Part shown: positions 15,266 to 57,098 of the stretch, one piece after another
Position numbering within the stretch: the stretch's first letter is position 1
How the letters are laid out: each line of letters opens with the position of its first letter
Source of the DNA: Ginglymostoma cirratum
Taxonomy: Eukaryota
Length of the DNA stretch: 64,000 bases
Assembly: GCA_024137785.1 (NCBI GenBank)
Contig: JAHRHZ010000041.1
Span: 25,055,009 to 25,119,008 of the forward strand
Direction of reading: 5' to 3'
The notes under the pieces: generated by a model
Database searches by the model: none
Seen by the model: the letters and a program-made list of their open reading frames with translations, nothing else
What the model was told of the DNA's origin: nothing
Position numbers and translations under genes: made by a program

Positions 15266-15470
15266 GAAAGAACTGTGGGCTCTGGAAATCAGAATCAAAA
15301 ACAAAAATTGCTGGAAAAATTTTCAGGTCTGACAGCATCTGTGGAGAGAAATCAGAGTTAATGTTTCAGGTCCAGTAACCCTTAGATAGTGGACTCAAAA
15401 TGTTAACTCTGATTTCTCTCCACATATGCTGCCAGACCAGCTGAATTATCATAACAATTTCTGCTTTTGT
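15266..15470. mobile_element. PLE pLTR-derived fold-back (inverted pair), family B, old
   Basis: Minus-oriented arm 15266-15383 and plus-oriented arm 15391-15470 are mutually complementary (GCATCTGTGGAGAGAAATCAGAGTTAA / TTAACTCTGATTTCTCTCCACATATGC). Both CUGANGA boxes are lost. Confidence 0.75.
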
Positions 15471-16769
15471 AACCATATTGAACAATTTGAAGTGATACTT
15501 TCTATTCCATCCCAACATTGAGCTTCGACCAATATTCCCAGATTGTCTGATTCTCCATTGTGATATTTTTCCATTGATTAAACCAACCATCCTGTGTTTC
15601 CTAGTGAGATTTGAACTGTGCTCTATCAGCGCGTACTCTCCAAGAATTAGAACAGTACCTATGCAAACCTCAGGTAAGTGAGACTTTCACCTTGTCTGCC
15701 TGAGATAGATTAGTACTAAGATTCTGGAGGTGAAAAACACCAGAGGCTAACCCGGAATGGCCAATGCCCAGCCTGGATTTTAAGTAACTTGTGTGCACGA
15801 TAATTATGTTACCTAATATAAAACATGTTCCAGTATTAGGGAACACTCAGCAGTCCCACACTCCCAATGTAGAGCCTTGTATGAATAGGGCATGGGTAGT
15901 AGGTTCATGGTTACATTTTTGGAGTCCTGAGTGCTGAATGGTCTGATGCTGGCAGTGCGGTGGTGAATTGAACTTAAGTGGTGATTATGAACACTGTAAA
16001 ACAGGGTGAGACCAATATGCAGAATATAGGAAATCTAAAATATATTGCCATTTAATGAGGTAGTCAAAATTCATACTTGAACAAAAATGTACTCAAATTA
16101 ATTTAAAGGTCAGTCAATTCCATTTACTTTACCACATGATCATCAATGCTTGAGTGAAAGCAGTAATATTTTACATTACATCTAATAATATAGTTTAATT
16201 ATAGTTTTCATTTTCAGCTCATTGTGAATAAAGAAATTTGTATGTTCAGTGATTTGGTCTTATTCTGTTCCTGTGATAGTCATTCTACACTCAGATCATT
16301 TGGCAGTGAAGAAAAAGCAATGAGGAAATATGAAGTCATCTGTTGTACATCATGTTTGAGTGTAAGGCACTTGACAAGCAAATTCCAGATCTAAGTCTCA
16401 ATCTCAACTGCTTTTCACACTTACCTCTCCCAAGAATTAGTGCTGAAAAGATTTTTTATTGAAAGGGAAGGGAAGGAAACTGCATCATGGAAAACATACT
16501 CAGTGCTCTGAGCCTGAATCTTCCTGATCTACGTAAGAATAATATTACTTCCTAGATTATAACCCTACCATTTATTTTCAGATGACTGTAAATAGTTCCT
16601 GTGTTCCCAGTTCCTGTTCAAACTATTTCTTTTCCTAAACTTCCTAATATATTTTCTTTATTACTGCAGCTAAATCTAAAAAAAATGAAGATCCAGAAAG
16701 GAAGGAATGAATACTCTAAGGAGCTTTTCAAATAATAAAGGTACACCTCAGCCATTATTGATTGAATGC

Positions 16770-17090
16770 TGGGCTTATGGTGAAATGGCTATCAACCGCG
16801 CCTTTGAGTCAGGAAGTGTCAGGTTCAAATCCCACTCCAGGGCTTGATGGCTACGGAAGGTGTATTTATGTTGTGGCCAACCAGGGTGAGTATCAGCTTG
16901 AAAATCCTTTCAACAAGCACCAATGGCAAACAATTAGACGGGAAGAGTTTCCCTGTCAGTAATGTGAAAATTTGGAGCTTCAACAGTCCCTGTCTTTGGT
17001 CCGAGACAAAACAGATGAAGTGCATGTTCCCAGCAACTTGGATACCTTTGCAGTTGGCTACATGGCTGGGCTGGTGACCTGCCTCTGTGC
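16770..17090 (+). mobile_element. tRNA-derived SINE (long form, head related to the ~110 bp SINEs)
   Basis: A-box-like TGGTGAAATGG and B-box GGTTCAAATCCC at about 16822-16833. Confidence 0.6.
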
Positions 17091-17384
17091 CCAACCTGTG
17101 CTGGAGGCTGCAGTGTCACAGCTCATATGCGTTAATATTATACTTTAAAGCTGAGCATGCATTCAGATAATTGTGTCAGAGGAGTTAACACTCGAAAACA
17201 AGTGGCAATCTCTCACTGCAGAAGTCACAGAGAAGCTGAAGTTAAGATATTGACACCACTTTTACTATAAAAGGTGGCTGATAAATGGCAAAGTAAATCT
17301 CAGTTTGCAGCCCCAAAAGTTGCTGATGCTTGGTTGACTCCATCAAGTCTGAGCCCATGTGGCAGTCTTTTGAAAATGGAAGAC

Positions 17385-17735
17385 TGAAGGTGTTCTATAG
17401 ATGTATTTAAATTTGTAAAATGTTGGAGTGGATGCGTAGAAAATGTTTCCTGTTGTGAGGAACAGTATAACTAGAAGCCATCAATACGACAGAGTCACAA
17501 AAATATGCAATAGGCGATTCAAAAGAAACTTCTTTACTCAAATTGAACTCCCAATCACAGAAAGCAGTTGAAACAAATAGTATGGATGCATCTAAGAGGA
17601 AGTTAGGTAAGCATCTGTAAAAGATAAGTGATTACGTTAATAATTTAGATCAGGAAAGGCAAGATGATGCTCAAGTGAAGTATAAATACTGGCGACTACA
17701 TGTTGGGCCAAATGATTTGTTAATGTGTCACATCC
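17385..17735 (+). mobile_element. Degenerate CR1 LINE 3' end
   Basis: ATAGATGTATTTAAA...AAAATGTTTCCT...AGAAACTTCTTTACTCA...GGGCCAAATG motifs. Confidence 0.65.
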
Positions 17736-20527
17736 CGATGTAAGCCCAAGTAATTTGTGCAATGTTATATAAGCATTGATTAATATAATATACTCAGGAT
17801 CCAATGTGGCATTGCAATTCACATTGTGTTTAACCTCTGTCAAGCTGCACAAATCTGAGCCCTAGGATTGGCACTGTCATATGCCAATATATGCAAACAA
17901 TCTATATGCTAACTCAGAGTAAAACTACAGTGGGAACCTGTCTTCTCAGGCATGGTGACTCTTTGCCTTTCAGAGCAACTTGAATAGTAGAACACGTTGC
18001 GTATGAAGAAAGCAAAGTTACTTGATGTCCCTCTTTCACTCTGGTGGGTTACATGTAAAAATGTTACAAAAGAAGAGGGGATGTTTGGGATTAAATTGGC
18101 TGATGCAGTATCTGTGTTCAGGCTCCACACACCTCCCATGACCCAAAGTGGCAGGCATGAAGCAAACCTTCAAAAGCGGGACAAACAAGAGAAGTCTTTT
18201 ACTCAGCATAAATCAAGTAAAGTACCAGCATTGATTTATAATAAACTTTATGCATTATTGATTCTTTTTTTAAAAGGTGCCCAACAACATCACTGCAATT
18301 CTCTCTAGACACCACCAGACCCAGACCTCACCTTCCCCCATTGCCTTCCCTCTTCCTATTTTTGATAACTGCAGCCACTCAGTGTCCTGAGGGTCTGATC
18401 TCCTTCCAAGACTGCAATCTTTACATTCCACAATTTATTTACCTGATGCTGCATCCTGCTACAAAGCACTTTTAATGTGATGAGATCTGAGGTCCAATGT
18501 TTGGGCTCCTTGAATCTCCCAATTTGTGGTTTGGGGGAATATGTCTGCATTTTAGGGGGATGGACTATATGTCCTAAACTAGATGCTCCCTAATTTAACT
18601 TCTACATATTCTGTATGATATACACCTCCTAAATATACAATATTGTTTTCAGGTAATAAAGTTCTTATATTATAAACAAGTTTCTCATTAAGTAGGTCTA
18701 TTCTTGTCACACTGTATATTGTAACACACATGTATTTATTACATTCTTATTCTATTTTAATGAAATTTGTCTTTGGTACACAGACATAAATCTTCATCAT
18801 TGAAGAAGAAACCTCATCAAGCTTTGTTATGGTGTTTACTGTTGCCTTCCTTCCAAGACTATTTCCTGCTAGGGGCTGCAGTATTCATGATATGCAGGAT
18901 GTAGGCTGAGGGTGCACAATGTATTCATAAAAGAAATAGTGGCATTTCCAAGTCAGTGATGTGTACAGTTTACTTGGGATTAATTAGAGCACTATCCTTA
19001 GATGGAACAATTTAATTTGATCCAAACTTATTTTAATCTCAAAATTAAGCTTTTACGCATTTATACTACTTCATAAAAGCATGAATGATATTTTAGTTAT
19101 AATTAACTGGTTTGGCTAGGGGCTCAGCCTGGGCTTATTACACACCAGAAATAACTTTCCATTTTTATGTAATCATGTGTTGGATCATGAGTGTATCTTT
19201 TGGCCTTCACTGAAATATTACATACTAATTGTGATTGTATATTAAGAACTGTCAGAGAACTGTAAGGGTAAAAATGCTTCTGTGAGACCAAAACACAGGT
19301 GAAATTAAGAAAGCAGAAACTACTTTGTCAGAACTTTGTCTCTTTTTACTGAGGCCAAAGATTTTTCTGTTTCTTCGGCTGCGAGGAGGGATCCAAGACC
19401 TGTGCTTACAGTCCAGTCATCCAACAGAAATTAGACAAAAAGGGGTGTTTCCTTTCACCCAGCTCACTTCTCCAATCCATTTGTGCACCCTTAAGAGAAC
19501 AGTCAAAGAATATTGACATTAGGCAGGCAGCTGACCACTACCTGCTTAAGAGCAATTAAGGATGTGCATTAAGTGATGATGTATAATGGTCACATTGCAA
19601 CAATTAATTCAAAAAGATATAGTTTGTGCCTGGCTCCTGATGTGTACAAAATTTTGTACTGGTCCCAGCAACGACCAGAGTCAGAAATTTCAAGGATGCG
19701 AGAGATTTTCCATCCCCCATTTGTGATCTCACAATATGTAGAAGCCTCGGAGAATCTGCTGCTATGCTCCAGCAATTGTTAGGAGATTTAATTCTGGTGG
19801 CCAGAGACTTGTTCAGATCAATTGCTATACTGTTGTCTTCTGCCTGGTTTCACAGCACAGACAGTATTTTGGAGATGGACCTGCACCAGGGGTGCTCAAG
19901 GAGCTATATGGCTCAAGACAGGAAATTTGATACATTGTTCAGGTGTCACACCCTTTCCACTCCTGTGTGGTGTAGACATGGTACAAATAATAAAATAGTA
20001 CATACCACAAGACATGGGGTATACGTCAACCTGATATGCGGGACAAACTCATTTGCCTCTCCCTAAAGATTTTGGTTCTCGCATGTACTTGTCATATATG
20101 TTGACCGTCCTTTTTAGCCATGATATGGTATACGTGCTTTAGTAGTCAGCTTCAATTTTTCACATCACAAATAAATGATTTACTTATCAAAACCTCAGAG
20201 CTAGGTTCAGAGATCAAGCAGGTGGTGCAACTATGATGTGAAGATGCAGGAAAGTTCAAGACTGATGTGTTATTTGCATCAGATGTCGTTGACATTTCAA
20301 AATAACAACCTTAGACACTTATAATAGTGGTTCACATTTATACATAGCAGATTGGCTGACGTCCATTTTTCGAGGGAATTTTCTAACCTTCAAAGATCAA
20401 CTTATACACTGACATCCACGGTAAGGACTTCAATAGTCTACATAAGGTGTTGTCCTCCTGTATATGACTGCCCTCGTGGTCAATTAACTACTTCTACATA
20501 ATTCTTTATAGAAAGGGATAATTTTTT

Positions 20528-21420
20528 TTTCATTCATGGAATGTGGCATTTAATAACCATCCCTAGTTACCCTTCAGAGGGTGCTAGCAAGCTACCTTCA
20601 TGAACCATTGTACTCCATTTGCTGCAGATTGACCCACAAATACTAGACAGAGTTCCAGGATTTTGACTCAGAGAACTGGAGGAAAGACAACAAATTTCCA
20701 AGTCAGTATGGTGAGTGGCTTGTAGTCAAAATTGCAGGTGGTGGTATTCCCATGTAAAAGCTGCTCTTATCATTCTCGATGGAAGTGGTCATGGGTTTGG
20801 AAGGTGCTGTCTATGGATCTTGGCGAATTTCTGCAGTGTATCTTGTAGAACGTGCACACACTGCTGTTACTGAACATCAGTAGTGGAGGGATTGGATATT
20901 TGTTGATATGGTGCCAATCAAGCAGGCTGCTTTGACCTGGATGGTATCAAGCTTCTTGAGTGTTGTTGGAGCTGCACTCATCCAAGCAAGTAGGGAGTAT
21001 TCCATCACATTCCTGACAGATTTTGGGAGTCAAGAGGTGAGTTACTCACTGCAAGTTTCTTAGCCTCTGACCTGCTCTGTAGTCACTGTATTTATATGGC
21101 AAGTCAACGTAAACCTGATGTGTTGATAATGGGGATTCAGTGAATGTCAAGGGGCTATGGTTTGACGCTGTCTTGTTGGAGATGGTCATTGTCTGCCATT
21201 TTTGGAGTGTGAATGTTACGTGCCACTTGTTAACTTAAGCCTGGATATTGTCCAGATCTTTGTTGCATTTGGACATTGCCTACTTCAGTATAGAATGAGT
21301 CACAGATGGTGGTGAACATTTTGCAATCATCAGCAAAATTCCCCACTTTAGATAGAGGGAAGGTCATTGTTGAAGCAACTGAAGATGGTTAAGCCTAGGA
21401 CACTACCCTGAGGAATTCTT
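20528..21420 (-). mobile_element. CR1/L2-group LINE (second family), ORF2 3' part plus tail
   Basis: ORF 21348-21539 ends IPQGSVLGLTIFSCFNNDLPSI (RT motif PQGSVLGP...NDL). Downstream reads MEYSLLAWMSAAPTTLKKLDTIQVKAACLIG. The tail matches 52345-52680. Confidence 0.85.
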
Positions 21421-21504
21421 TCAGAGATTCCTAGCATCAACACTATATTTAAAAAAGCCATTACACACCCAACCAAATGCAGGCAGTTAAGTGCAGCCTT
21501 GCTT

Positions 21505-22365
21505 GGTTCATTGCAGATTAGGGGAAATTGGTGCACCACTTTTTAGAATCCCTACAGTGTGGAAACAGGCCCTTTGGCCCAACAAGTCCACACCTACCCT
21601 TGGAGCATCCCACTCAGACCCATCCCCCTATAACCCACTCACCCCTGAGCACTATGGGCAATTTAGCATGGCCAATCCACCTAGCCTGCACATCTTTGGA
21701 CTGTGGGAGGAAACCGGCGCACCTGGAGGAAACCCATGCAGACACGGGGAGAATGTGCAAACTCCGCACAGACAGTCACCTGGGGCTGGAATCAAACCCG
21801 GGTCCCTGGTGCTGTGAGGCTGCAGTGCTAACCACTGAGCCACCGTGCCGCCCTATTACGGTCAGGAACCTGATGATCAGGGTGGTGCAGAGAAGGGACA
21901 TCCTCTTCCCCCAGGATTGGCAAAGGAAGCCATAATGCCAGAAACTGCCAGTCTGGGTTGAGGTCCAGAAAAATGCCCAGTATTGCCAGGGGGATGTCAG
22001 TGGCCTCCTGCATACCACCATGGTAAGCGCTAGTATCTTTTCACTGCTACCTCAACATCATTCTATCTTTGCTACTGCATCTACCTTCAACCAAGACCCG
22101 TACTCTACCACTGCCAGTATTGCATGCAATGTCTTTCCTCACTCGCTTTTCCCCACACCGAACCCCCACACTACTAACCCTGCATTTCTTCTGCACCTCC
22201 TACTCAGTCATGTGATACACCATGCCACCTTTTTCCCACATTCACCAGCATAAACAGCTGTACCACACACTTTCCTCTTACCCAATCCCTCCTTTTCTCT
22301 TATTCCAGGAACAAACGGCCTGCAATGGGGCTAAACAAGTCAAGACGGATGGTAGGGTGTCCCTT
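21505..22365 (+). pseudogene. Decayed two-exon Myb/SANT-like gene of a Harbinger-derived element, split by the HE1 SINE
   Basis: ...RNLMIRVVQRRDILFPQDWQRKP...WVEV...CQGDVSGLLHTTM, donor GTAAGC at 22023, polypyrimidine-AG acceptor at 22307-22308, then EQTACNGAKQVKTDGRVS (resembles the EK.AHNR.ER.KTGGG.P motif). Confidence 0.6.
21541..21853 (-). mobile_element. HE1-type V-SINE, near full length
   Basis: Reverse complement: GGGCGGCACGGTGGCTCAGTGGTTAGCACTGCAGCCTCACAGC (tRNA head), V-domain GGAGTTTGCACATTCTCCCCGTGTCTGCATGGGTTTCCTCC...GGTTTCCTCCCACAGTCCAAAGATGTGC, and CR1-like tail GGGCCAAAGGGCCTGTTTCCACACTGTAGGGATTCT. Confidence 0.92.
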
Positions 22366-23300: not shown

Positions 23301-23960
23301 AAATACTTTCTCAATTTGCTGAGATATTCTTGGTAATGCCATCTTCAGGCTCAATGCAAAAATTATCATTGAATTAAGGTCTGCTATATTGCCTCTCCAT
23401 TAGCAAAAGAGCCAGAGAGAATTACTGAAAAATAAAGGGTTGACAGGGAGTTATAAAATGGTAATTCAATTGAGCTGTTCAGAGGACTTTATAAATTGAG
23501 GTTTATGATCAACAGTGGAACTGTGAAGGATTAAATTACTGTTTTGAATATTTGTTCATTCTATATGGGCCTTTTCTTTCTTTCATAAAACTTTAAGTAA
23601 GTTGCAAATGGATGTGAGTTCACAATACAGAAATACCCTGATTGGGTACTAATTGAAACAAAAGTGTTAATTGCTGAAACAGGCCAGGACAATGACTCAT
23701 GTTGGGAAATAAAAGCATTCACATGAAGCAGAGATATCCATTCTTCATAGAAAACATGGAAAATTGGACATCACTTAAAAAGATAACATTTAACTTTGGC
23801 AACATTGACAGTCCATTATGCATGGTACCTGATATTCTTTTCCATTGAAATCATTGATATGGATATTAGGCAGCTTGGCTAACAAGTGGTTGATCCAGTT
23901 TTATGCCCCAACACAATAATATTTTACTCCAAGTTAATATGTATGTATTTCACACATATT

Positions 23961-24139
23961 AAAACCGAAAGAACTGAAGATGCAATAAATCAGAAACAAA
24001 AACAGAAATTGCTGGAAAAACTCAGCATCTGTGAAAAGAAATCAGAATTAATGTTTTAGGTCTGGTGACCCTTCCTCAGAGCGTTAACTCTTCACAGATG
24101 CTGCCAGACTTGCTGAGCTTTTCAAGCAATTTCCGTTTT
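23961..24139. mobile_element. PLE pLTR-derived fold-back, family B, with TSD
   Basis: Minus arm 23961-24080 ends at CTTCCTCAGA and plus arm 24082-24139 starts at CGTTAACTC. Flanks TATTTCACACATATT (23946-23960) and TATTTCATATATATT (24140-24154) match 13/15. Confidence 0.8.
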
Positions 24140-25464
24140 TATTTCATATATATTTCAAGGTGTCCATAATTTTGTGACTGTGCTTTAGAATTAATTCACA
24201 AATGAGCTACTGATCAGCTATCATAATCTTAGCCATTTCTAGTCCAGACTCATCAAATTCCAACATGAAAAACCAACAGAAAAGAAACATAACAGCAAAA
24301 GAAAAATTAGTTTCTGGTTTCAAAGGTGTCTATTCCAGCTATGTAAAAATTAATGGTTACATGGACTGTAAATTTGACATATGCCTCTCAGGACTCCATG
24401 CTATGCACCATGTCAAAAAAGGTTGGGTATCCCTTTTCTACATAAGAAGGATTTTTTTTTTTCACTTTGCAGATAAGTCATCCTTTTGGTCTTGAGTGCA
24501 ATTGTTAATTATCTTGCCTTAGCTAACTGTTTTCAGTGAGGTGGCCTGTCAGTGAAACACAACCAGGCAATGCTGCAGATTTAGTTTAAGCAATGAAACG
24601 GAAGTTGATTATGCAAAAGAAATGAAAAAGAAAATAGAATAAACAAAACCATTTACAAAAAACAGAAGTTTAAAAATTCTGAAACACATGGTAAAATACA
24701 ATCCCATTAATTCCAACAGCACTCCTTTACAGTGCTCTCAACTGAGAAAAATGCCTTCTCAATCACATCTATAACATTTAATTTAACAGTGCTTCAATTC
24801 CCAGTCTTCAGAATCTGATAGCCTCTTGCTTGAGTCTCCATTCAGCTGAAGTCAGACTTTCTCCACTAGAGAACTGGATTTCTCATGTTCAAATAATCCC
24901 TTCAGGGATTTAACCATCCTCTTCTGGCCTAGAATTTACAAAATAAACAATTACCACTAAGGTAGCATATTTATTAATAATTCTAAACTATGTCCCCTGT
25001 TCAGGAGCAATTGACTTAAACATCATTCTCACGTGAAGACTTCTGCAAACCTGAAATCTAAAAGGCTTTCTTCAGCAATGGCTGTTTTCCCTAAGCCAAA
25101 AAAAAAATTCCAGAACCTCTAACTGAGGCCAAACGTAATGTACTGTTTATGTAGTTCATTTGTAAAACTCATCCAATGGAAGCAAAACCATATTACTCTC
25201 CTGGAGGCATTTCTCTCATCCTGTATTTTTAGAGGAAATTTCAATGGCTACAGGATATTTAGAATTTAATCATGAAACCCCTTTATAAACTCAGATCAAG
25301 CCCACATGCCACTAGTTCAAAATTCAAACCCAATATTAAATTATATTTTTTTACTTTACGTCACAATGGGATAGTAGCTGTATAATGGGCAAAGAAGGAA
25401 GCAGTTTCTGAAAGTGGTCAGGGGAGCTCTCTGGATCCACATGTTTCTGCCCCACCAAGAAAGA

Positions 25465-39620: not shown

Positions 39621-40472
39621 TATTACAAATATTTTTCAGGCCTGGAGTACTGTATTTAAATACAACTGCAGTTGCATTCTGTAATTTTCCTTTCAAAAAT
39701 AAACCAGTCAATAAATCATCTTTGTATGAATAAAACTAATCATCAGAGAGAATACACTAAACAATAAGTTTCAATGTTAATATTGCTTTAGCATGTTTCA
39801 ATCTACTGCAGCTTCTGTTTCCCATGATATCAGTTAAACTCAACTGCAGAGCTCTTAGCTTCATAGTCACTAAAAAAAAAACAAGCCGTGTTGGTTTCCT
39901 TGAGTGTTTGTTGCTGCAGAATGAATGATACCTCAGGGAGGTCTTGCAACTGCTTGTTGACCGTTACATGCTGAAAATCAGCCAAGAAAGTAGCAGAGGG
40001 AAATTAGGTGGGGACCATGGATATCTTTTTGCCCATTTTTTAATTGATGTTTTGGACAGGCATTTAAATGGACTTACAATCCAACCCTCCTACCGAAAAT
40101 ACGTGGCAGGTTGAATATATAACTTGCTACACATATTCATCATTGAATAATTGTAATTGCTTTGGAGGAATGGGTGGAGGATGCAAATCACATATTTATC
40201 TCACCTTGTCCAGGCTTTGTGAGGTAAGGACCAATGATCAATGGTTGGTAAAATTACCATGAGAGGTCAAAAACATGAAACTTTTGATTTGTTAAAATAG
40301 TTTTGTAAGGGTAAGAGTAATATTCACCCATCATTTGCCTCGAAATTCACCCATCCTACTACCAGTTTTTCATTGTTTGCTCCAGGATTCACCTGCCTTC
40401 AATGGCCCCACCAGTCTGGTAGATCTGTACTCATTTACCTGTTCTTAAAGGTAAGCCCCAGTGAATTACCCA

Positions 40473-40724
40473 AAGGAACTGCGGATGCTGTAAATCAGGA
40501 ATAAAAACAAAGTTGGTGGAAAAACTCAGCAGGTCTGGCAACATCTGTGAAGGAAAAAACAGAGTTAACATTTCGGGTTTGGCGACCCTTCCTCAGAATG
40601 GAGCAAGGGTCTGTGGAAGGGTCTGTTCTGAGGAAGGGTCACTGGACCCAAAACGTTAACTCTGTTTTTCCCTTCACAGACGCTGCCAGACCTGCTGAGC
40701 TTTTCCAGCACCTTTGTTTTTGTT
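40473..40724. mobile_element. PLE pLTR-derived fold-back with two hammerhead motifs head-to-head and a 16-bp TSD
   Basis: Minus arm ends CCCTTCCTCAGAA (about 40598). Plus arm starts GTTCTGAGGAAGGGTCACTGGACCC (40625). Flanks CCCAGTGAATTACCCA (40457-40472) and CCCAGTGAATTGCCCA (40725-40740) match 15/16. Confidence 0.88.
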
Positions 40725-40809
40725 CCCAGTGAATTGCCCATTTGACTCATTGAAAATTTTAAATTAAGCCCAAATTAAAATGCCGCAAGTGTCTCCACAT
40801 TCAAAAGAT

Positions 40810-42275
40810 TATTATCCACCATTTCTGCCACCTCCAGCAGAGTACCAACACCAAACACACCTTCTCTCCTCCTCCACTGTCAGAATTCCACGGGTACTGT
40901 TCCCTCTGTTACACCTGGTCCACCACTCTATCACTCCTAACAGTCCATCACCAATGCATGACACTTTCCGGTACAATTGCACAAAGTGCAATACTTACTC
41001 TTTCGTCTCCTCACTCCTCATTGTCCATATTTTGTTCCATTCTGTTACTTGACAGAAAGCTATACCTTTATCACATAGACTGCCATTACACACCCCCTGT
41101 TGTTAGTCACTAACAGTCCCCATTAACAACTATTCACCCTCCCAGCCTGCTCATTAGCAGCTCCTTTGCTGTCCGACTGTCTTTCTCTCTCTTTGGGCTC
41201 TACCCTATCGTTTACTCCCTACCCCATCCACCTGCCTATTTTCTGCATATAAACTGACATTTTCCCAGCCACCATCAGTTCTGAGGAAGAGTCACCAGAC
41301 CCGAAAACTCTGTTTTCTCCGCCAGACTTGCTGAGCTTTTCCAGCAACTTTGTTTTTTTTTTCTGATTTACAGCATCTGCGGTTCTTTTGGTTTTCCTTT
41401 ATCACAAGTCCCTTTCTGAATGCTTACTGTAGACCTTTGCTCTGAAAGACCATCTATATCACCTCCACTGCACTTTCCTGCTTCCTCTTTCCATGATTCC
41501 TTCAAAAGGATTCAGATGCAGAAGTCAATCTTTCTACACTATTTTTCCCTCAAAGCCTTTCTTTCTTTTCCTCAGATAATTGCTATTTCTTCCTAGGCCT
41601 TTAATTGTTTTATTTCCCACTTATCCTTTCCTTGAGAAATTTGGTCCAATCTGGCTCAAGTGTCTCCAACACTTTGGTGAGACCAAACACAGACTGGGTG
41701 ACTACTTTGCAGAGCACCTCCACTCTGTTCATAAGCATGACCTGGCCAATTGTTTGCTCTTTTGATAAATCACCTTGCTCCCACGTTAATGTTTCTGTCC
41801 TAAGCCTTCCACAATGTTCCAACCAAACACAACATAACTGGAAAGAACCTCATTTTCCACTTTGGCACTTCGCAATCTTTAGGACTCAACATTGAGTTCA
41901 ATGACTTCAGAGCATGGACACTGTCCTCCATTTTGATAACCATCCCCAACCCCCACCACTGTGCCTTGTTTGTGTCTTATTGGCGTTATTCTCTGCAGAG
42001 CTCAGCAATTTTCTCCTATTCAAATCTACCATTCATACCTATTTTGTATCCTAATCACCCTCTGTCACTCACTTTGTTTTTTTCTTTTGGGCACCCTCAT
42101 CATTTGTTCCACTCACTCATCCTCCCCTTCTGTGAAAAGCATAAAACTATCACTTTCCAGCACTTTGCAGTTCCAAAGTGGAGTCTTTGGACTCCGAATG
42201 TTAACTCTATTTCTCTTTCTACAGATGTTGCTGGACCTGCTGAATTTCTCCAGCACTCTCTGTTTTTACTGCAGT
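40810..42275 (+). mobile_element. Degenerate Penelope-like retroelement 3' part: linker, GIY-YIG endonuclease and pLTR
   Basis: 40810-41030 reads HHFCHLQQSTNTKHTFSPPPLSEF...LVHHS...TFRYNCTKCNT (Cys pair). 41650-41912 reads FGETKHRLGDYFAEHLHSV...VSVLSL.QCSNQ...LIFHFGT.Q.LGLNIEFNDFR (PLE GIY-YIG). It ends in a pLTR with a decayed hammerhead, stem II GAGTC-TTTG-GACTC at 42181-42194. Confidence 0.85.
41076..41395 (+). mobile_element. Solo PLE pLTR (family B) nested inside the older PLE, with an 11-bp TSD
   Basis: Contains TCAGTTCTGAGGAAGAGTCACCAGACCCGAAA and the full 3' end GCATCTGCGGTTCTTTTGGTTTT. Perfect direct repeat CCTTTATCACA at 41065-41075 and 41396-41406. Confidence 0.85.
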
Positions 42276-42819
42276 TGAAGTGTTGGAAGAATCCCCTCGA
42301 TAATTGATCAATATTCAGCTCTTAGCTTGAACGAAATTGGGCCAATGTAGTATGAAAAGGATAAGTAGGACTGCAGGAAGTAAAACAATTAAAGGTTTGG
42401 CAGTTCACTGAGGAAAGGAAAGAAAGGCTTTGAGGAAAGAAGTGCATAAAGATTCTTTTCTGCAACTGAATCTTTTTCAAGGAATCACAGAAAGAGTAAG
42501 TGGGAAAGTGCAGTGGATGTGATTCAGATGGTCTTTCAGAGCAAAGGACTGCAATAAACATTCAGAAAGGGACTTGTAATAAAGTTTTGGTTTTGAGTAA
42601 AGTAACAGAATGCAACAAAAATGGTTTTATTTCACTTTTACTGAAACCCGTATTTTACTCCCAAAATTCTGTATCATTTTAAATTTTAAAACAACCATGA
42701 TGGAATTTAGATCCAGATTCTTCAGGTTACTGGTCTCTATTATGAGCATGATGCTACCACACACCAGATTAGAATAACCATAACAATTTGAATAAAGACT
42801 TTAGAATTAGTTTTTTTTT

Positions 42820-44486: not shown

Positions 44487-44590
44487 AAAAAGCAGAGTTA
44501 ATGTTTCGGGTCTAGTGACCCTTCTTCAGAACGGTTTTAATTTTGTTTCTGATTTCCAGCATCCCTGGTCCTTTGTATTTTTTTTGTTTT
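44487..44590. mobile_element. Small asymmetric PLE pLTR inversion with a near-intact minus-strand hammerhead
   Basis: Reverse complement of 44496-44532 is GTTCTGAAGAAGGGTCACTAGACCCGAAACATTAACT. It is followed by a plus-oriented 3' end TTTGTTTCTGATTTCCAGCATCC. Confidence 0.7.
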
Positions 44591-48025: not shown

Positions 48026-48631
48026 AAACAGTGCTGTACAGCAACATGTCCACCCCCTTGACTAATGACAGCCAACAACTATGATAGGCTTTGTGCCTAT
48101 GCTAAAAAGCAGCAAGTCAAGACAAAAGTATGATAACTTTACAGTCTGGCTGAGGGAGGAGACCACCAAAAGGCAAAGCAAGGCAGGGATGCTGTGAGGA
48201 CCAAAGTGGGCACAAAATGAATGAGTGCTAAGAGAGAGAGAGTGCAAGCAGCCCAGTGATGCAGCCTGGTCCAAACTGTGAGTTAGATGCCTGCCCCTGC
48301 ATGCAAGTATCCTGGCATTTCCAATTATAAGATACCAGTTTACTCCAAAGTGCAGCATCAAAGCACAGAACGTAAGTGGATTACAAATGTACCAGGGTGA
48401 TGTGGTGGGGTTGGTACATGTCAGGTGCCATGGACAGGGTTGTGCACTGCCCATGGTGCATGCCCTGAGATGTTGATGCCTGGTGTTCAAGATAGAGGTC
48501 CAGAGGAGCAAGCAGCGAGTTGGATTTGCCAAGTGACCACTCTGACTTTCCTGTAGGGAATTGTCCAGTTTCAAGTATCTGTCTAGTTTCAATCCAATGG
48601 GAGGGAGATTAGAAAACTGCATTTTAATGAG

Positions 48632-49199
48632 AGATAAAAGGTACTGCAGATGCTGGAAAATCCGAGATAACAAGCATGGGGCTGGATGAACACAGCAGGT
48701 CAAGCAGCATCATAGGAGCAGGAAAACTTGACGTTTCGGGCCTAGACCCTTCATCAGAAATNNNNNNNNNNNNNNNNNNNNNNNNNNNNNNNNNNNNNNN
48801 NNNNNNNNNNNNNNNNNNNNNNNNNNNNNNNNNNNNNNNNNNNNNNNNNNNNNNNNNNNNNNNNNNNNNNNNNNNNNNNNNNNNNNNNNNNNNNNNNNNN
48901 NNNNNNNNNNNNNNNNNNNNNNNNNNNNNNNNNNNNNNNNNNNNNNNNNNNNNNNNNNNNNNNNNNNNNNNNNNNNNNNNNNNNNNNNNNNNNNNNNNNN
49001 NNNNNNNNNNNNNNNNNNNNNNNNNNNNNNNNNNNNNNNNNNNNNNNNNNNNNNNNNNNNNNNNNNNNNNNNNNNNNNNNNNNNNNNNNNNNNNNNNNNN
49101 NNNNNNNNNNNNNNNNNNNNNNNNNNNNNNNNNNNNNNNNNNNNNNNNNNNNNNNNNNNNNATGCTGCTTGACCTGCTGTGTTCATCCAGCCCCATGCT
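48632..49199. mobile_element. Young PLE family A fold-back insertion spanning the assembly gap, with a 14-bp TSD
   Basis: Minus arm 48632-48761 has an intact hammerhead (reverse complement CTGATGAAGGGTCTAGGCCCGAAACGTC). Plus arm 49162-49200 is the reverse complement of part of it. TGCATTTTAATGAG occurs at 48618-48631 and 49200-49213. Confidence 0.85.
48762..49161. other. Assembly gap (400 N)
   Basis: Run of N. The round number suggests an estimated size. Confidence 0.99.
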
Positions 49200-49840
49200 T
49201 GCATTTTAATGAGGCTTGCTTAGGTAATAATGAGATGTTAACACATGCTATTACATGCAAATACTCCTCGCTGCTCACTAGCGAGAAACTCACCTCACCG
49301 TTGAACACATATTGGAAAATGGGATATTTTCCTCTCAATGTCAGGAAGCTCCTCATTGGCCATCTCATGATTTTCCCAACTTTCTTGCCATGTCCCAGGT
49401 TGTTCAGGGGCTTGGAAGATTCCACCCACGGTGTTTCATCCAAGAAAAAAATGCCTTTCTTGGATTTTAATGTGCTTTTATTTTGTTTCATCCTCATAAA
49501 CATAAAATACTCATTTTAGCGACATTGTCTTCCTTGGCCAATAACATTGAGGATGTGTTATAAATTTTGACAAATGTAATACATTGGAATAATTCCTTTT
49601 GATGACTATTTAAAGATGTAAAGTTACATCTTTTACTGTGACACCAATTGTTAATGTCAACAACTTTTAATTTAGTTTACTTAAAGCTCAATTTTTCTCG
49701 AAGCATTTAATCAATTCGTGAAATGATAGTAAAGCTTTAGAATCATGTAACAAAGACACATCACTCATGTGTGAATTAAGTTTTTAATTTTGTTTCTTCA
49801 GTTTAAAGACTTATTGTCAGTATTTACAAAGCCATGTTGA

Positions 49841-49966
49841 TTCTGAAGAAGGGTCCCAACCCAAAACGTCAGCTTTCCTGCTCCACTGATGCTGGCTGGC
49901 CTGCTGTGTTCCTCCAGCTCCACACTGTGTTATCACTGACTCCAGCATCAGCAGTTCTTACTATCT
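49841..49966 (+). mobile_element. PLE pLTR 3' fragment with decayed hammerhead
   Basis: TTCTGAAGAAGGGTCCCAACCCAAAACGTC (GAAA changed to AAAA), then the family A-like 3' end. Possible 6-bp TSD TTGATT (49837-49842 / 49967-49972). Confidence 0.8.
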
Positions 49967-52344
49967 TTGATTGTAATGTAGGAGGTCGGTGATCATTTAG
50001 CTTGATACATCTACCAAATTGAAAAAGACAGAAACAAAATAGTTTAGTGAGAATGGACCATCGAGACTCTTCAGTACAAAACAGGCATAGAATAAAGCAA
50101 GGGCCTTGGCTACAGTGAACCAATTAAGGTCCAAAAATATACTGTCACTCAACTTTATTGAAAAGCTGCTCAGAAATTAAAGAGCGAACTAGAGAGTCTA
50201 ATTAAGACATAGGGTATTCTCAAGTCGACTTCCAATCTTCCTAAAGAGACCTTTGGCTAAATAAACTGGCCTGATCTTTACCTTGTTGAAGCTTCTGATC
50301 CAATAAAGCTTTGTAAATATCACCGTTATCTCATATCTTTGAGCAAAGTGATTTGAGAGCAGTGGTAATCTATAACCATATTATTCATTCTTAAATATGG
50401 TTAAATAATGTCCTTCTGGGTCAGAGGCTTGGGCCTGAACGCTAACCTTTGAGCTTGAAGTAGGGGTGGCAGACAGCAGTTTCAATGCCCGAAAGTTTAT
50501 GATACGAGTATTTTTGTAGATTTTGAATGGAGTCATTGCACTAGAACCCTTCCTTTCAGTTTCCCAATCATTCATAGCAGTTTATGTGTTCAAAGCTACC
50601 CGACTGGCTCAGTATTCGAAGTGACCCCGAAAGGGACAGACTGGAGACTGTTTAAAACTGGCAATTGAGAGATAACAACTGAAGTGATGATGTCTGGGCT
50701 TTAAGGGCTCAATGTGAAACATCATTCCCAGTGGGATTATGAAGCCAGTCTCTGAAGTCACACCAGTAGATCTGGAAGTTTCTGAGGAGATGAACAGCAG
50801 AGGTGTGGTACATTTATTTCCACCTACAAGCACCTCTCCTGCTCAGGACTCCTTAGAACAGTACACCTTGCAGTTCTACTCACCCCTCTCTCTCCCTATT
50901 GAGATACCTATTCACATCCCTGTCTGAGAAACTGCATCAGACATACATCCTCAGCCTATTGCCATCTCACATCATGACCTTACCATCACCATCCACGAAT
51001 ATTGTCAGTGTATTGTCTCAACATATTGCATATCTCAAGATCACAACTCTTTTCTCCTGTTGTTACGGGAGAAAGACCCGTGTCCAGCCATCCAATAATA
51101 GCCACCAACTACTTTGTGGGAGGATGTCCTAAGGGAAGTCATGGCAAGCTGCCTGATGCCTTTACAATCAAAACTCCTGACCTGGGCCATTATGGTAAGG
51201 AATATCTCTCAAAGAATTTTCCTCATCTTCACCGAGAGGCAGCTGGACTCCAAGACATATAATTTTGAGTTGGCAATGTCCAAAGAATAAAAGCCAGTCA
51301 ATATTTTTACTTCTTCCTGATAGTCTAAAATACAATTTTGTTTTTCGTGAGATTGCTTTTTCCTAGATATTGTAGGGGTCTGTACAGAAATCTTCAGAAA
51401 ATATTTCTACACCAATGGAATAGGCATTGGAGCATTGAGCATTTGATTCTGAAGATGAGTTAAGATTAGTTTATGTAAATGTATAAATTTAACATATAAC
51501 ATATAAGTATATATGGAAAGCATGCAATTGTAATGCTTATAAAAGTAGCATAATCATAAAGATGAACAATGTCCTGAAAAGCTAACTCTTACTTTCACAA
51601 GAAAATCCAAACTTCAATCTCCACTTAGTACAAATACAAGACTTTAAAAGAGATTAAGGATCTCCATCAAACATCAAAGTTATATTTCCTTGATTACTAA
51701 GAGTGTGAGATTCATTATGTTCAGAGTGAATCTGAAGTGGGGGTGACTGATATCAATGTCTCTCCTCTAACAAACCTGATTATTAGATAACTTTGAGGTA
51801 TTTATCATTACTATTTTAATGTTGTAATATTTAAAAGTGGTGTGAAAATGGTCTTTCAGTCAATAATACACCATCCCTAATCATTTAATATGAGGGCCTT
51901 CCAATTGTAATGATGTTGCCGATTCAATTTCCAATAATTTTATTTGAACTTATTCTTGGGATCCAGTGTTTCTTTATCAGATTATGCTTTTAATTGTCTG
52001 ATCTGGCATTGCACGTTAATGATAGTTGTTATGCCTAGATCCCTGGGATAGTAGTTTTGAAGTTAGTATAATGCTTTGTCTTGTTATTTTTTAAATATAA
52101 TGATGCAGTTTGCTTGTAGGTTGTACTAAGATTTATCATTGAACTTAATTTCTTGTATCCATCCCATATATTTTAGCCCTTATTCTTTCAGAGTCTTTCA
52201 TGGTCATTGGCGATGGAGAGCTACATAGTGACAGAATTAGATTCAATCTGAATTTGTGCCTTTCATCTCTCACTGGATCATTGAGTGTCCTGTAGAAGTT
52301 GGTGCTAGAGGAGAATTCTCCTCAAAAGAGGGATGTATTGTGAG

Positions 52345-52681
52345 AAAGCACAATCACCAAAGATCTTCAGACAACACCTTCCAAACACACGACCACTTCA
52401 TTTAGAAGGACAAGGGCAGCAGATACATGGGAATACCATCAATTTCAAGTTCTCTTCCAAGCCACTTTCTGTCCTGACTTGGAAATATATCGCCGTTCCT
52501 TCACTGTTGCTGGGTCAATATCCTGGAATTCCCTCCCTAATGGCATTGTGAGTAAACCCACGGCAGGTAGACTGCAGCGGTTCAAGAGGGCAGCTCACCA
52601 CCACCTTCTCAAGGGCAACTTGAGACGGGCAATAAATGCTGGCCAGTCAGCGATGCCCACATCCCACAAATGAATAAAAAA
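52345..52681 (+). mobile_element. CR1/L2-group LINE (second family) 3' end
   Basis: KIFRQHLPNTRPL...TWKYIAVPSL...SWNSLPNGIV...LQRFKRAAHHHLLKG, with tail ATCCCACAAATGAATAAAAAA. Confidence 0.85.
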
Positions 52682-52719
52682 GTACCAGTCTCCTTCGGGT
52701 CATAATCATTGGCTATGTC

Positions 52720-53605
52720 AAGTTGTGTCGTCAATAGTGAGTAAGAACAAGTGAGATGGAGGAGGCATGGACAGCGGTGAAAAGTCCCACTCGGAAAATC
52801 CTGGATCCTCAAACTCACTCAGCTTGATGCAGATGCTTTGCAGTGAAGAGGGTGACAGTGGAGTAGCAACAAAACATGGGCACCCCATTCTGTCATCTTG
52901 TCCAGAGGCACTGTGCATGATTGGAGAGAGATGGAAGGCGTCTGTCTCTAGCATGACTGCTATGATTTTGCAGGCCTTTTTGTTGATGTTGACTGCCGTG
53001 GGAAGAGTGATTGTCTACATGGAGCATTAGACGCAGCAAGCAACCAAATCTCTGTTGTCCTGACTGATGGCTGCACAATCACTATTCCAGCTTAAATAGA
53101 GAGGAGGCAACCATTCCCATTGCCATTCATCAACTCCTGAAGTACAGCAAAGTACTCTCCAGTTCAGGGAAGTGCAGGATGACCTTATAGGAAACTTGGA
53201 TAAAACAGACTTGGAAGCAAACAAATAGCACATGTAATGCAGCAGTTCAAGGCAGCTCATCACTACATTCTCAAGGGCTACTAGGTACAGGCCCAGCCAG
53301 TGACGCCCAGTGAGGTAATAAGCAAAGAAAAGTGGGGGCTTTGCTCAAGGTAAAGCCACGTCTGCCCTGCGCCTCACCCACCCATCGCTCACTGCCTCAG
53401 TATTCCCTGCAGGCTGACTCCTGTTCCGTCCTGTCCTTGAGTCTGTTCCTGCACTTCTGCGGGATTTTGTAGATCCTCAGAGGACACCAGTCCTGAACAT
53501 CACAGCAACCAGAGCAGGAGATTGATCAGCCTATCTGTCACTCTACTGAAACCACAGCACCAGGTAGCATTGGGTAGGAATAACAGGAACAGGAAGTGAA
53601 AGACT
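52720..53605 (+). pseudogene. Probable decayed 3' portion of a Harbinger partner (Myb/SANT) gene, convergent with the transposase
   Basis: ORF 52767-53030 has an amphipathic segment (PEALCMIGERWKASVSSMTAMILQAF...VGRVIVYME) followed by a P/S-rich, basic-ended region. It lies tail-to-tail with the transposase. Interrupted by a LINE tail at about 53230-53310. Weak motif evidence only. Confidence 0.3.
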
Positions 53606-53792
53606 TTGCAATTTCACTGTTCAAACGCTTGTTAAATTTCCTCCTTTATTATTGGTCTTTATGCAGCAAAGGCTTTATTTTAAAGCTTTATTGTCTGTTC
53701 ATTCAAATTGTTTCCTGTCTCAGCCATGATTAGGGTAGACGGTTGGTGAACAATGGGTGTCAGTGAAATAAATAGATTGTTTTTTTCAGATA

Positions 53793-53885
53793 AATCAGCT
53801 TGTTTAGACATGTTATAACTCACCTCTGGAGCAGGTGGGACCTCAATCCAGGTCTCCTAGCTCAAGGATAGGGACACTACCACAA
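53793..53885 (-). mobile_element. Short tRNA-derived SINE
   Basis: Reverse complement GTGGTAGTGTCCCTATCCTTGAGCTAGGAGACCTGGATTGAGGTCCCACCTGCTCCAGAGG...AACAAGCTGAT. Confidence 0.7.
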
Positions 53886-54346
53886 TTGCCCGTAGACCGT
53901 GGGATGCTTTGTCCAAGGGGCTAGGGATGAGTACGGTGCATTTAGAATTAGTGGGCCAGGCATCTCGACTAACTTAGATTGCTGATGTGCCTGAATGAGT
54001 CCATGCTATCTGACTCTGACAGCTGGGTTTGCTGGCCATAGGGCCCCTATAAAAACATGCTCTTCCTCTTCCAACTCTGAATGTGTGGCGTGCTCTCCTT
54101 ACTTTCCTCCTCCCATTCACTCCACTCCTCTCTGCTACATTCAGTCGTACAAGACCAAACTGGTCTTTCCCATTCCGGACATAGGAGTATAAAACTGAAA
54201 GGCTCCCCAGGTCCGTTCAGGTGCCTGAATTGTTTTCCAAAGCTCACTCAGTGCTCATGTGGCTCCTCTTGCACCTTTCATGTGTATCAGTTATTGAACT
54301 CCTCACAGTGTAATCAAATACATTCTTAGAGGATAGCCCCAACCCC

Positions 54347-54460
54347 AAGACTCTTGTGGTGCAGGACAGAGTACCCTAACCTCTGAACCAGAAAATTAAG
54401 GTTCAAATCCCAGCTGTCCTGGAAGTATGTCATAACATACTTGAACAGGTTGATTAAAGT
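54347..54460 (+). mobile_element. Short tRNA-derived SINE inserted in the Harbinger transposase
   Basis: CTCTTGTGGTGCAGG...CCCTAACCTCTGAACCAG...GGTTCAAATCCC...GAACAGGTTGATTAAA, with an 8-bp hairpin at 54423-54442. Confidence 0.72.
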
Positions 54461-54929
54461 AACTGGCCCCTGATTCCAAAGAGGCATTTACTGACTCAAC
54501 ATGGAGTTACAGATGTCTGTGAGAATCTTGACTTGTACAGGATGAAGGTATCACAGCAACTGCCTGTGTATACACTCATCATTGTCATTCAGTGGTTACA
54601 CCCAGCCGAACATTAAACCTGCAGAGGCCCTTTCATTTGATGAATACTGGTTGTTTTGAGGGTGTTTTGACTGTCACATGTCTGTGGCTTCCTGTACCTG
54701 TAGGAATGTAGCTATAGCGGCAAATTGGAGTGACCTCTCATTGTGACTTGTTTCAGCGATAACAAATTGGTTGTAAGTGAGTGGCCACAATATGAGGCAC
54801 CTGAAAGAATCGCTTTTAGGTGGGAATCTGCCAACGGTACCAGCAGATCCCTGGAAAGAGCTGGAGCCAAAAAATCTCAGGGCTCTGGTGATCATGGACA
54901 AGCATTGGAAGTGTGTGCCCACCTGATAG

Positions 54930-55052
54930 ATAAAAGGGGAGCAAATGGGAACAGGGCACTGGATTGGATGATCAGCCATAATTTTATTGAATGGGAGAAG
55001 CAGGTTCAAAGCACCGAATGGCCAATTTTTGCTCCTTTTTTATCGTTTCTAT
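54930..55052 (+). mobile_element. CR1 3'UTR fragment inserted in the Harbinger transposase
   Basis: GGATGATCAGCCATAATTTTATTGAATGGGAGAAGCAGGTTCAAAGCACCGAATGGCC...GTTTCTATG. Confidence 0.75.
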
Positions 55053-55612
55053 GAAGCATTCTGCAGCAAGACCTGCCCAAAGAGTTTGCAAATGTCAGCA
55101 GTGGCCTCCGCTGAAAATCAGAGCCTCCTGACACATTTCTGCTCAGCCATGTCCAAAACGTTAACCTTCTGCCTGTGTGCCCTATGGCGTGGATATTGTC
55201 TCCTGCAACTCTATGGTCATCACCTCTGTCGGTGGACATAGAGAAGGTGGTGACAGAAAAGGCGGCTGTTGTTGTTGTTGCTGGTCCTTGCTGCTTTTCT
55301 TGGTCCTTATCAGAGAGCTGCATAAGCTGCTGAGAGGCTGAAGGCTAGGAAGTTCAGATCAAAGCACGGAAAGGCCAAGGTATAGCAGAAATGGCTTCTA
55401 AATTGTAAATCTCTTCCAAAGCAGCCAAAATGCCTTTTCTAAACAGAGCAGCTACATACATAAGTCTTTCTACTTTGCAAAGAAACATCTGTCAGACCTT
55501 GTTAAGAGTTTTCCAACCAGATAATCGCTCAATCCCATCAATCTGTCTGTACCCTTGCTTTATTCAAACTGATGTGTGTCAAACAGTTTGTATTGGCAGC
55601 GAAAGCCAGAAT

Positions 55613-55728
55613 CCTAGGCCCGAAACGTCAAGCTTTCCTGCTCTTATGATGCTGCTTGGCCTGCTGTGTTCATCCAGCTCTACACCTTGTTATCTCGGAT
55701 TCTCCAGCATCTGCAGTTCCTATTATCC
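55613..55728 (+). mobile_element. PLE family A pLTR 3' fragment, truncated inside hammerhead stem II
   Basis: CTAGGCCCGAAACGTCAAGCTTTCCTGCTCTTATGATGCTGCTTGGCCTGCTGTGTTCATCCAGC...CCAGCATCTGCAGTTCC. Confidence 0.85.
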
Positions 55729-56776
55729 ATTAAATATTCAGCCAATTGACTTGCAATATGTTGTTAAGCACAAGCCCACATGTCTCACTCTGCATGCTGT
55801 CAGAAACATATAAACCTAAGGCCCGGTTCATGGACTGTTGCAAGTTTCTTGAAATACTGGCCCTTTTTTCTTCTTTAATTTTACACGTGTGTCATAACTT
55901 GCTCATCTGGCAGCTTGAAATTCAAATCCAGGCTATCAAAGATGAAAAATAAAATACCGTACAGCCTTTGACTGTTTCTACTCAAGTGCCACCAGATACT
56001 GAATGGACTTGTCACATTTTCAGGTCATTTATTTCCAGCTGGATTAGGACACAGTTTCACTTGTACAAATTAGATCCATTTAACTATAGTCTTAGCTTCT
56101 GCTGTTGTTCCCTACACTGGAAGGACTTTGTGTGCATTCTCTGTAAATCCTTGACATAATCTGGAATAATGGAAGGATATTACCGATCAAATGTGCAATC
56201 AATTCCTTCCTGTCTCCACATTTGGAATACCAATACAGAAGTGATCTCACTAACTCTGTTTTCAATCCTTTACAGATGGATTTAGGTGAGTTTACCTGAG
56301 CCCACTCCAAAGCCTGAAATTAAAGATCTCCACAAGGAGTCCAGCAAACCTCTGTCATGAGGAGAGATTTTATTAACCATATTACTTTTGTGCAAAAGGT
56401 GGTAACATTTGGCGCGAGAAGTATATCTCATTGTTCAGGTTTGTGATTACTTTCCTGTTGATCTCAGCTTGCTGAGTCCCTCCAACAAATGAGTCATTAT
56501 AAATCCCATCAAACTGCTTTAATTTCAACCAGGCAACGTCCCATTTTTGGTCAGAGTTGTTACATTCCAATTCCTGTTTTAAAGAAACTCCACTCTAGAA
56601 CTGTCAACAATGAAAAGTGATAATGATGGGTCTACTTTCCTTAGCTCTGAGGTTTCCCTTGTTTGACAGACCAGGTTTGAAAGTATCAAGGCAGTATTAT
56701 ATTGATAACACTGTCAATGAGAGCTTCCATTACTTTGCTGCAAATTGAGAGTAGACAGATGAGGTAGTAATTGGCT

Positions 56777-57098
56777 GGGTCATTAGACTCAACATGTTAA
56801 TTCTGTTGGAAAAGCACAGCAGGTCTGGCAGCATCTGTGAAGAAAAAAAAAAAGAGTTAAAATTTCAGGTCCTGTGACCCTTCCTCAGAAGTTCTGAGGA
56901 AGAGTCACCGGACATGTTAACTCTGATTTTTTTCTCCACAAATGCTGCCAGACCTGCTGAGCTTTTCCAGCAACTTTGTTTTTGTTTCTGATTTACAGCA
57001 TCCGCAGTTCTTTCGGTTTTTATGTTAATTCTGGTCCTCTCTCTGCAGATGCTGCCAGATCTGTTGTGTTTCTCCGGATATTTATGTTTTTGGTTTGT
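56777..57098 (+). mobile_element. Older PLE pLTR fragment split by the fold-back at 56806-57021
   Basis: Removing the insert and one TSD copy gives GGGTCATTAGACTCAACATGTTAATTCTGGTCCTCTCTCTGCAGATGCTGCCAGATCTG, a continuous family B sequence. Confidence 0.7.
56806..57021. mobile_element. PLE family B fold-back with a perfect 12-bp TSD
   Basis: Centre TTCCTCAGAA-G-TTCTGAGGAA (56881-56901), with complementary arms. ATGTTAATTCTG occurs at 56794-56805 and 57022-57033. Confidence 0.88.

Follow-up and report, generated by a model that had tools for sequence, protein, structure and literature searches.

The 64,000-nucleotide stretch of the Ginglymostoma cirratum genome analysed here (the window; GenBank assembly GCA_024137785.1, contig JAHRHZ010000041.1, positions 25,055,009 to 25,119,008 of the forward strand) contains six loci at which the 3′ segment of the terminal repeat (pLTR) of Penelope-like elements (PLEs) occurs in inverted copies, or arms (Table 1). 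All six lie where an earlier note on this DNA had placed them. Profile searches reveal that at loci A, B, C, D and E an inverted arm is followed by a direct arm, with the hammerhead (5′) ends always at the centre, and that in each case one arm reaches the tail end of the repeat and the other is shorter, as the note had described. Its count of five head-to-head pairs and one asymmetric locus stands for A, B, C and E. The arms of D lie on either side of a 400-N gap. F does not form a hairpin, as its inverted part shows no overlap with its direct part, and this locus is an inversion with deletion and no duplication. The gap hides the centre and length of D; assembly gaps of 10, 100, 400 and 3000 N recur, and because several other young copies carry identical junction sequence on both sides of a 400-N run, D is probably compact with its centre behind the gap. 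In hairpin C the spacer repeats the hammerhead-start sequence, and the locus has a folding energy of −150.5 kcal/mol (z −17.4).

Direct repeats of 12–16 bp had been reported at four loci. As target-site duplications (TSDs), those of C, D and E are clear, that of B is borderline (its score of 9 is equalled in 44 of 1500 shuffled end pairs), and neither A nor F has one above chance level. An older, decayed pLTR arm begins inside the right TSD of E (57022–57091), and the target of E was thus probably a PLE remnant already in place. We compared these loci with a relative about 96% identical, for which four public DNA runs were read as contigs that show presence only. Contigs from 4/4 runs join 48617 to 49200 and keep one 14-bp TSD copy; D is absent from the relative and is therefore not an assembly artefact. 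This empty orthologous site, which the earlier note had named as a check, together with the TSDs, supports its view that each hairpin arose in a single insertion event. At C (3/4 runs), F (3/4) and E (2/4) the relative's contigs also continue out of unique flanking sequence into an arm, the left one at C and E, which indicates that these three insertions predate the split.

Table 1 Penelope-like features of the window (positions are those of the window; model, position in the pLTR profile; f1 and f2, the two families)
Feature	Position	Strand	Description
f2 3′ end with untranslated region (UTR)	202..363	+	TATA-like TATTTA 202–207, initiator-like A 233, intact hammerhead core, tail end ~363; reference for D
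Hairpin A	15260..15470		f1, old; inverted tail-bearing arm (model 10–134), then direct short arm (19–99); hammerhead core lost
B left TSD candidate	23946..23960	+	15 bp, 2 mismatches to 24140–24154; borderline
Hairpin B	23961..24139		f1; inverted tail arm (model 2–134), then direct short arm (from 28)
B right TSD candidate	24140..24154	+	
C left TSD	40457..40472	+	16 bp, 1 mismatch
Hairpin C	40473..40724		f1; inverted tail arm 40473–40598, 26-nt spacer, direct short arm 40626–40724
C right TSD	40725..40740	+	
Deleted f1 PLE copy	40793..41395	+	Open reading frame (ORF) remnant 40793–40906 (53% to f2 protein), UTR with TATAAA 41248–41253, pLTR arm 41277–41395
Old PLE 3′ remnant	41670..42271	+	GIY-YIG fragment 41670–41744, C-terminal GLN motif near 41882, decayed arm 42171–42271
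Locus F	44487..44590		f1; inverted model 1–46 (44487–44532), then direct tail region from ~44541
D left TSD	48618..48631	+	14 bp exact; single copy at empty orthologous site
Insertion D	48632..49199		Young f2; inverted tail arm 48632–48761, 400-N gap 48762–49161, direct short-arm end 49162–49199
Minimal type I hammerhead core (D left arm)	48730..48757	−	Intact, strict core pattern; sole one among the six loci
D right TSD	49200..49213	+	
Solo f2-type arm	49841..49966	+	Hammerhead edge to tail end
Solo f2 arm	55614..55729	+	Model 17–130; bypassed by relative's contig in 3/4 runs
E left TSD	56794..56805	+	12 bp exact
Hairpin E	56806..57021		f1; inverted short arm to 56890, 1-nt centre, direct tail arm from 56892
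E right TSD	57022..57033	+	

Parent element and abundance of the insertions

The loci are split over two PLE families about 69% alike, f1 (A, B, C, E and F) and the younger f2 (D). The proposed PLE origin is supported by a partner ORF with a reverse transcriptase (RT) and, at the C terminus, a GIY-YIG domain: at locus L102 the ORF matches RVT_1 (E 3e-5) and GIY-YIG (E 6e-4), both below Pfam curated cut-offs. Arms of f2 flank RT + GIY-YIG ORFs, and the f2 repeat tail runs into the ORF start. Arms of f1 lie downstream of homologous ORF pieces in four sampled loci and in the window, where the deleted copy links f1 to a PLE ORF because it joins an ORF remnant, UTR and f1 arm. A 69-aa RT piece gave 31,753 first-look candidates across the genome, and partial tandem pLTRs are present at L105 and L109. 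The linker between the RT and endonuclease (EN) domains of L102 carries C-x4-C-x2-C; a zinc-finger-like cysteine motif in this linker is a mark of the Neptune clade but occurs in Nematis as well (PMC8557442). An RT + GIY-YIG ORF, tandem or inverted pLTRs, a tail at one end and a minimal hammerhead identify these loci as EN-bearing (EN+) PLE insertions. The description of a hammerhead-bearing population was overstated: an intact strict core survives in the window in the left arm of D alone, the core, a predicted ribozyme, is found in 47/107 f2 and 6/87 f1 arms long enough to include it, and an Rfam scan returned no hammerhead family match. Folding of isolated hammerheads is not significant (z −1.3 to +1.1). 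Weak Rfam matches to microRNA precursors (MIR2118), far under gathering scores, reflect the hairpin fold-back.

The genome was sampled in 159 stretches, each 10 kb long, of which 60 were taken at round coordinates and 99 at a distance of 20–30 kb from RT hits. With 26 stretches that consist entirely of N set aside, 1,293,516 bases remained. These hold 60 inverted pairs, one of which was discarded as a chance pair; the other 59 comprise 45 compact pairs, 8 centred on a 400-N gap and 6 longer ones. Neighbouring arms are arranged tail to tail twice, each time with mixed families, and never in tandem. The great abundance that the earlier note had claimed is borne out by this density of about 35–41 hairpins per Mb, which corresponds to about 100,000 or more genome-wide if the unseen parts are alike, and by 3,080 matches to one exact young-f2 junction pattern (control, 0), a figure that includes double counts across gaps at 5 of the first 50 places listed. 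Inverted pairs range from 140 bp to 4.2 kb, the long ones with ORF parts, and solo arms also occur, with identical ends throughout; the compact hairpins are the shortest members of a continuum that extends to 4.2-kb inverted insertions with an RT + GIY-YIG ORF. Young f2 hairpins with a 400-N gap at the centre include L033, L042, L083, L138, L143, L226, L235 and L238. As such gaps occupy the centres of young hairpins, the youngest copies are probably underrepresented and distorted in the assembly.

Arm ends and the probable priming of both strands

The two ends of an insertion follow a strict rule. TSD-bounded inverted pairs numbered 68, and after one chance pair (5.8 kb apart) was dropped we analysed 67, a set that includes loci chosen for their resemblance to E or through RT hits, and an unselected subset of 36. 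One arm ends at the tail and the other at a site 29–48 nt upstream in 61/67 pairs, at the tail and further upstream in 5/67, and otherwise in 1/67 (32, 3 and 1 in the unselected subset). Exactly one arm is tail-ending in 66/67 pairs, and no pair among the 67 has two tail ends or two upstream ends. The offset between arm ends is 32–37 nt in 50/67 pairs, with a usual shortfall of about 35 nt. Unpaired arms end at the tail in 87 cases, at the upstream site in 56 and elsewhere in 13; independent choice of ends would make about 48% of pairs mixed, and 32/32 mixed pairs would then have a probability of 5e-11. TSDs measure 11–17 bp (14–16 bp in 51/68), a range whose floor is imposed by the TSD score threshold (11). 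Microhomology of the target end with the RNA at the second site (site 2) has an uncontrolled average of 1.2 nt. The one-tail rule fits the in vitro behaviour of the anole Poseidon element (PAc), which has two RT start sites and cleaves and extends both strands (PMC11167929), and it supports the suggestion of the earlier note that both target strands are primed.

The inner ends of the arms indicate why the insertions are short. Among young f2 arms (n = 53), 16 of the 37 at risk end at −2 to +4 of the hammerhead 5′ edge, a rate of 6.2% per nt, and further upstream the rate is 0.2–0.4% per nt. In the bin that contains the ribozyme cut site, 2/50 young f2 arms end, and in the absence of a peak there we rejected ribozyme-cut RNA as the main template. 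TATTTA lies at −31 in 34/43 f2 UTRs and TATAAA at −29 in 4/11 f1 UTRs; base −1 is G in 7/12 f2 arms (p 0.017), and a hand reading of the 45 distinct junctions listed gave, at unambiguous −1 positions, counts of roughly 10 for G, 5 for A or T and 14 for genomic C. An extra G can arise from copying of a cap. The hammerhead 5′ edge is thus likely to be the transcription start. A 3′ splice site, suggested by a pyrimidine tract and CAG in f1, was rejected as an explanation of the boundary, since AG is missing from f2 at this point and many f1 arms extend past it into upstream bases. Full-length copies that start at the hammerhead edge are ruled out as well, since L105 and L109 carry UTR upstream.

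Probable copying of one RNA from both target strands

We assign a probability of about 0.7 to the reading that each hairpin is a one-off insertion of a ribozyme-bearing PLE end, with both nicked strands primed at two fixed sites on one RNA. A dimeric RT–endonuclease would make two nicks about 14–15 bp apart and engage the pLTR copy closest to the RNA 5′ end, where reverse transcription would start from both nicked target strands at two fixed sites of the same molecule that lie about 35 nt from each other. Both cDNAs would run off after 100–135 nt at the capped start, which has a TATA-like box near −30, an initiator at +1 and an additional G at −1. The second copy would be made by displacement of the first cDNA from the RNA, and the two cDNA ends would be joined head to head by microhomology or templated end joining. 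Were a downstream pLTR engaged instead, long inverted insertions would result. Without an upstream TATA-like box and ORF start, the compact stubs would rarely or never be copied again.

Two alternatives retain the priming of both strands. In one, which we consider unlikely, the strands prime on two separate RNAs that share a dimeric particle and may be paired by way of the palindromic stem III of the hammerhead. Complete duplication would then need no strand displacement, the PAc protein is a predicted dimer (PMC11167929) and minimal hammerheads have been proposed to act as dimers (PMC4209133). The arms of a pair nevertheless resemble each other as copies of one template would. In the 16 pairs with both arms at the hammerhead, UTR is present on both in 5, both stop at the edge in 10 and one pair (L212) is mixed, an agreement of 15/16. 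Paired f2 arms are discordant at 40/356 polymorphic sites, compared with 44% for random arms, and a loop variant present at about 50:50 agrees in 13 of 14 scorable young pairs, the discordant one being L220 (20 loci were fetched, two of which are probably one locus); the exceptions L212 and L220 would suit two RNAs. With arms agreeing in UTR status and subfamily variants, two separate RNAs are not needed, and an extra rule would be required for one RNA always to use site 1 and the other site 2. The second alternative keeps the rest of the model and ascribes the 5′ pile-up to an RNA end trimmed to a protein-protected hammerhead fold, or to an RT stop. In both families the boundary does fall at the 5′ strand of hammerhead stem I, initiator motifs are weak and f1 ends are scattered over several bases. 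Yet TATA-like boxes stand at −29 to −31 in two divergent families, f2 has its excess of G at −1, and the 3′ side of the fold, where a stalled RT should leave its ends, shows no peak; we regard this explanation as decidedly improbable.

The alternatives that dispense with two-strand priming fare worse. Fold-back or self-priming, in which a strand copies itself on an antisense template and the tail is cut by the endonuclease, is the published model for head-to-head PLE palindromes (PMC3846280) and had been offered in the earlier note as cDNA fold-back; 13/45 compact junctions overlap in a manner compatible with annealing. A fixed fold-back order predicts that the same arm is always longer, whereas the tail-less arm extends at least 8 nt further 5′ in 16/43 pairs, the tail arm in 11/43 and neither in 16/43. 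Unpaired arms use both end sites, and sense-RNA initiation at both sites was seen in vitro (PMC11167929), so this model is already largely contradicted and we hold it very unlikely. Equally little credence goes to a self-propagating, non-autonomous palindromic family, retrozyme-like or MITE-like (MITE, miniature inverted-repeat transposable element), copied from hairpin masters, the class that the earlier note had proposed. The 3,080 junction matches, the recurrence of some short junction strings and two pairs of loci with long spacers in common would suit such a family. The 29 copies closest to E, however, have varied linkers and short-arm ends, and where junction strings are shared within a set of 85 compact pairs, the short-arm ends differ, so that in the small part of the genome covered the same junction and arm ends are not seen to be inherited at unrelated loci. 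No same-family three-arm nest was found among 305 clusters, and there are no head-to-tail neighbours as against 45 compact head-to-head pairs, a layout foreign to non-LTR retrozymes. The core is intact in 5/45 compact hairpins, in one arm each, and both cores in 0/45; pairing between the two arms of a hairpin RNA is predicted to lock the ribozyme. Unlike the terminal inverted repeats of a MITE, the termini differ by about 35 nt, the centres vary and the TSDs of 11–17 bp have variable sequence. Because junctions vary, tandem neighbours are absent, hammerheads have mostly decayed and the same layout occurs with long ORF-bearing arms, the hairpins are not a self-copying family in the small part of the genome examined.

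Two long spacers recur, each at two loci (L220 and L221; L222 and L223), and we rejected them as proof of propagation. L220 and L221 differ in their variants and, by inference, in the long arm. L222 and L223 (L241/L240) lie 212 kb apart and have the junction and 104 nt in common, found nowhere else; a 14-bp repeat ties the left end of one locus to the right flank of the other, and the two are likely to be one insertion split by an assembly misjoin, or else a PLE-linked rearrangement. Long spacers share at least 7 nt with the arm start in 4/13 cases, compared with 5% of shuffles, which is suggestive only. The L223 arm adjoins an open exon, to which the pyrimidine tract and CAG of the pLTR could splice in frame; this exon resembles an olfactomedin-type domain.

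Several points count against the reading of two-strand priming on one capped RNA. Agreement between arms is weak in the old f1 family (71/226 discordant, compared with 48% for random arms) and could in part come from subfamilies active in succession, and the UTR comparison covers 16 pairs. Placement of 99/159 stretches near RT hits bears on the sample as a whole, and the scoring floor on the length of TSDs. The putative start and the actions of the enzyme are deduced from sequence. The G excess is unclear in f1 (2/7), one of the seven f2 G cases lies at the boundary of a nested insertion, and in many young junctions base −1 is the genomic C. Both complete 5′ pLTRs examined (L105 and L109) extend into upstream UTR instead of beginning at the proposed start, which indicates that longer templates exist, and the Drosophila Penelope promoter is internal and TATA-less (PMC2377424). 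Owing to the unclear f1 excess, these two pLTRs and the Drosophila promoter, the start site counts as inferred.

Relation to known elements and other features of the window

The layout of an inverted pLTR, a one-sided tail and a TSD has been published for EN+ PLEs (PMC3846280, PMC8557442), and the suggestion of an undescribed system is not upheld: the hairpins are a minimal form of a known PLE insertion architecture, real and abundant, and not a new mobile system. Adineta Pen2a_Av has the inverted pLTR, tail, TSD and, as in the shark, TATA- and initiator-like motifs in the pLTR, and is the source of the self-priming model (PMC3846280); inverted copies and one-sided tails are listed as typical of PLEs (PMC8557442, PMC8969392). 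Head-to-head pLTRs, a one-sided tail of about 35 nt, a TSD and an RT + GIY-YIG partner are shared with Pen2a_Av and other EN+ PLEs (PMC3846280, PMC8557442), including Drosophila Penelope (PMC2377424). The shark insertions differ from those described in that they are often just two pLTR stubs and in their TSDs of 14–16 rather than 8–10 bp, and they add a strict one-tail rule and a counted 5′ pile-up. Like them, PAc has two RT start sites that bound the tail, and its insertion does not need hammerhead cleavage; PAc belongs to the Penelope/Poseidon clade, whereas the shark protein has the Cys-rich RT–EN linker described for Neptune and Nematis. Joined hairpin products are not described in the results of the PAc paper, as far as available, and its later steps are left open (PMC11167929).

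Minimal hammerheads and retrozymes are defined in PMC4209133 and PMC7229834. With metazoan non-LTR retrozymes (PMC7229834; bioRxiv 10.64898/2026.07.22.740005) the hairpins share a non-coding, PLE-related nature and a type I hammerhead; retrozymes are head-to-tail tandems with a ribozyme per unit and circular RNAs, whereas the shark hairpins are head to head with a minimal, mostly decayed ribozyme. The bioRxiv study treats tandem forms, and 'palindrom' and 'hairpin' are absent from the text of it available to us. Neither shark PLE hairpins that lack an ORF nor these counts turned up in the literature searched, which excluded subscription papers, supplements, Repbase and Dfam.

In L1 twin priming both target strands prime on one RNA and leave a 5′ inversion within the TSD; locus F resembles its products. 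L1 arms usually lack overlap and the second site is variable, whereas the shark hairpins have two fixed sites and arms that are duplicates of one another.

The origin of PLE inverted repeats and one-sided tails is still unsettled (PMC8557442, PMC11167929), and the hairpins constitute evidence on the mechanism: the counts argue against the published self-priming model and yield, for an in vitro system that already exists, three sharp predictions, namely a single site for each strand, a single RNA, and run-off that ends at a capped start rather than a ribozyme cut. More tentatively, at a little less than even odds, shark genomes may hold about 100,000 frozen snapshots of PLE integration, in which one dimeric enzyme primed both strands on a single uncleaved capped RNA at sites 35 nt apart, so that the element would act as a factory of promoter-less RNA-hairpin cassettes. 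Such a reading, if true, would account within one model for the tail, for the inverted pLTR and for the requirement of tandem copies, and the cassettes may feed small-RNA or editing pathways. The stubs can also be mistaken in annotation for MITEs or microRNA hairpins, and the young ones coincide with assembly gaps.

Other parts of the window hold further PLE pieces. The solo f2 arm at 55614–55729 is young, missing from the relative (3/4 runs) and without a TSD above chance, a possible duplication-free insertion. Just past the hammerhead (pLTR model ~50), f1 arms contain a splice-acceptor-like pyrimidine tract ending in CAG|ATG (for example, 56935–56946, + strand), and sense-oriented f1 arms within introns could act as cryptic splice acceptors. 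A non-PLE inverted repeat of 260 bp, 77% alike, at 41397–41660 and 42326–42584 encloses the old PLE 3′ remnant and could be either a DNA-transposon-like element that has decayed or a long inverted insertion of old date. On the minus strand at 58738–59511 lies an open frame of 257 aa that resembles the C-terminal part of a CR1-type LINE ORF2.

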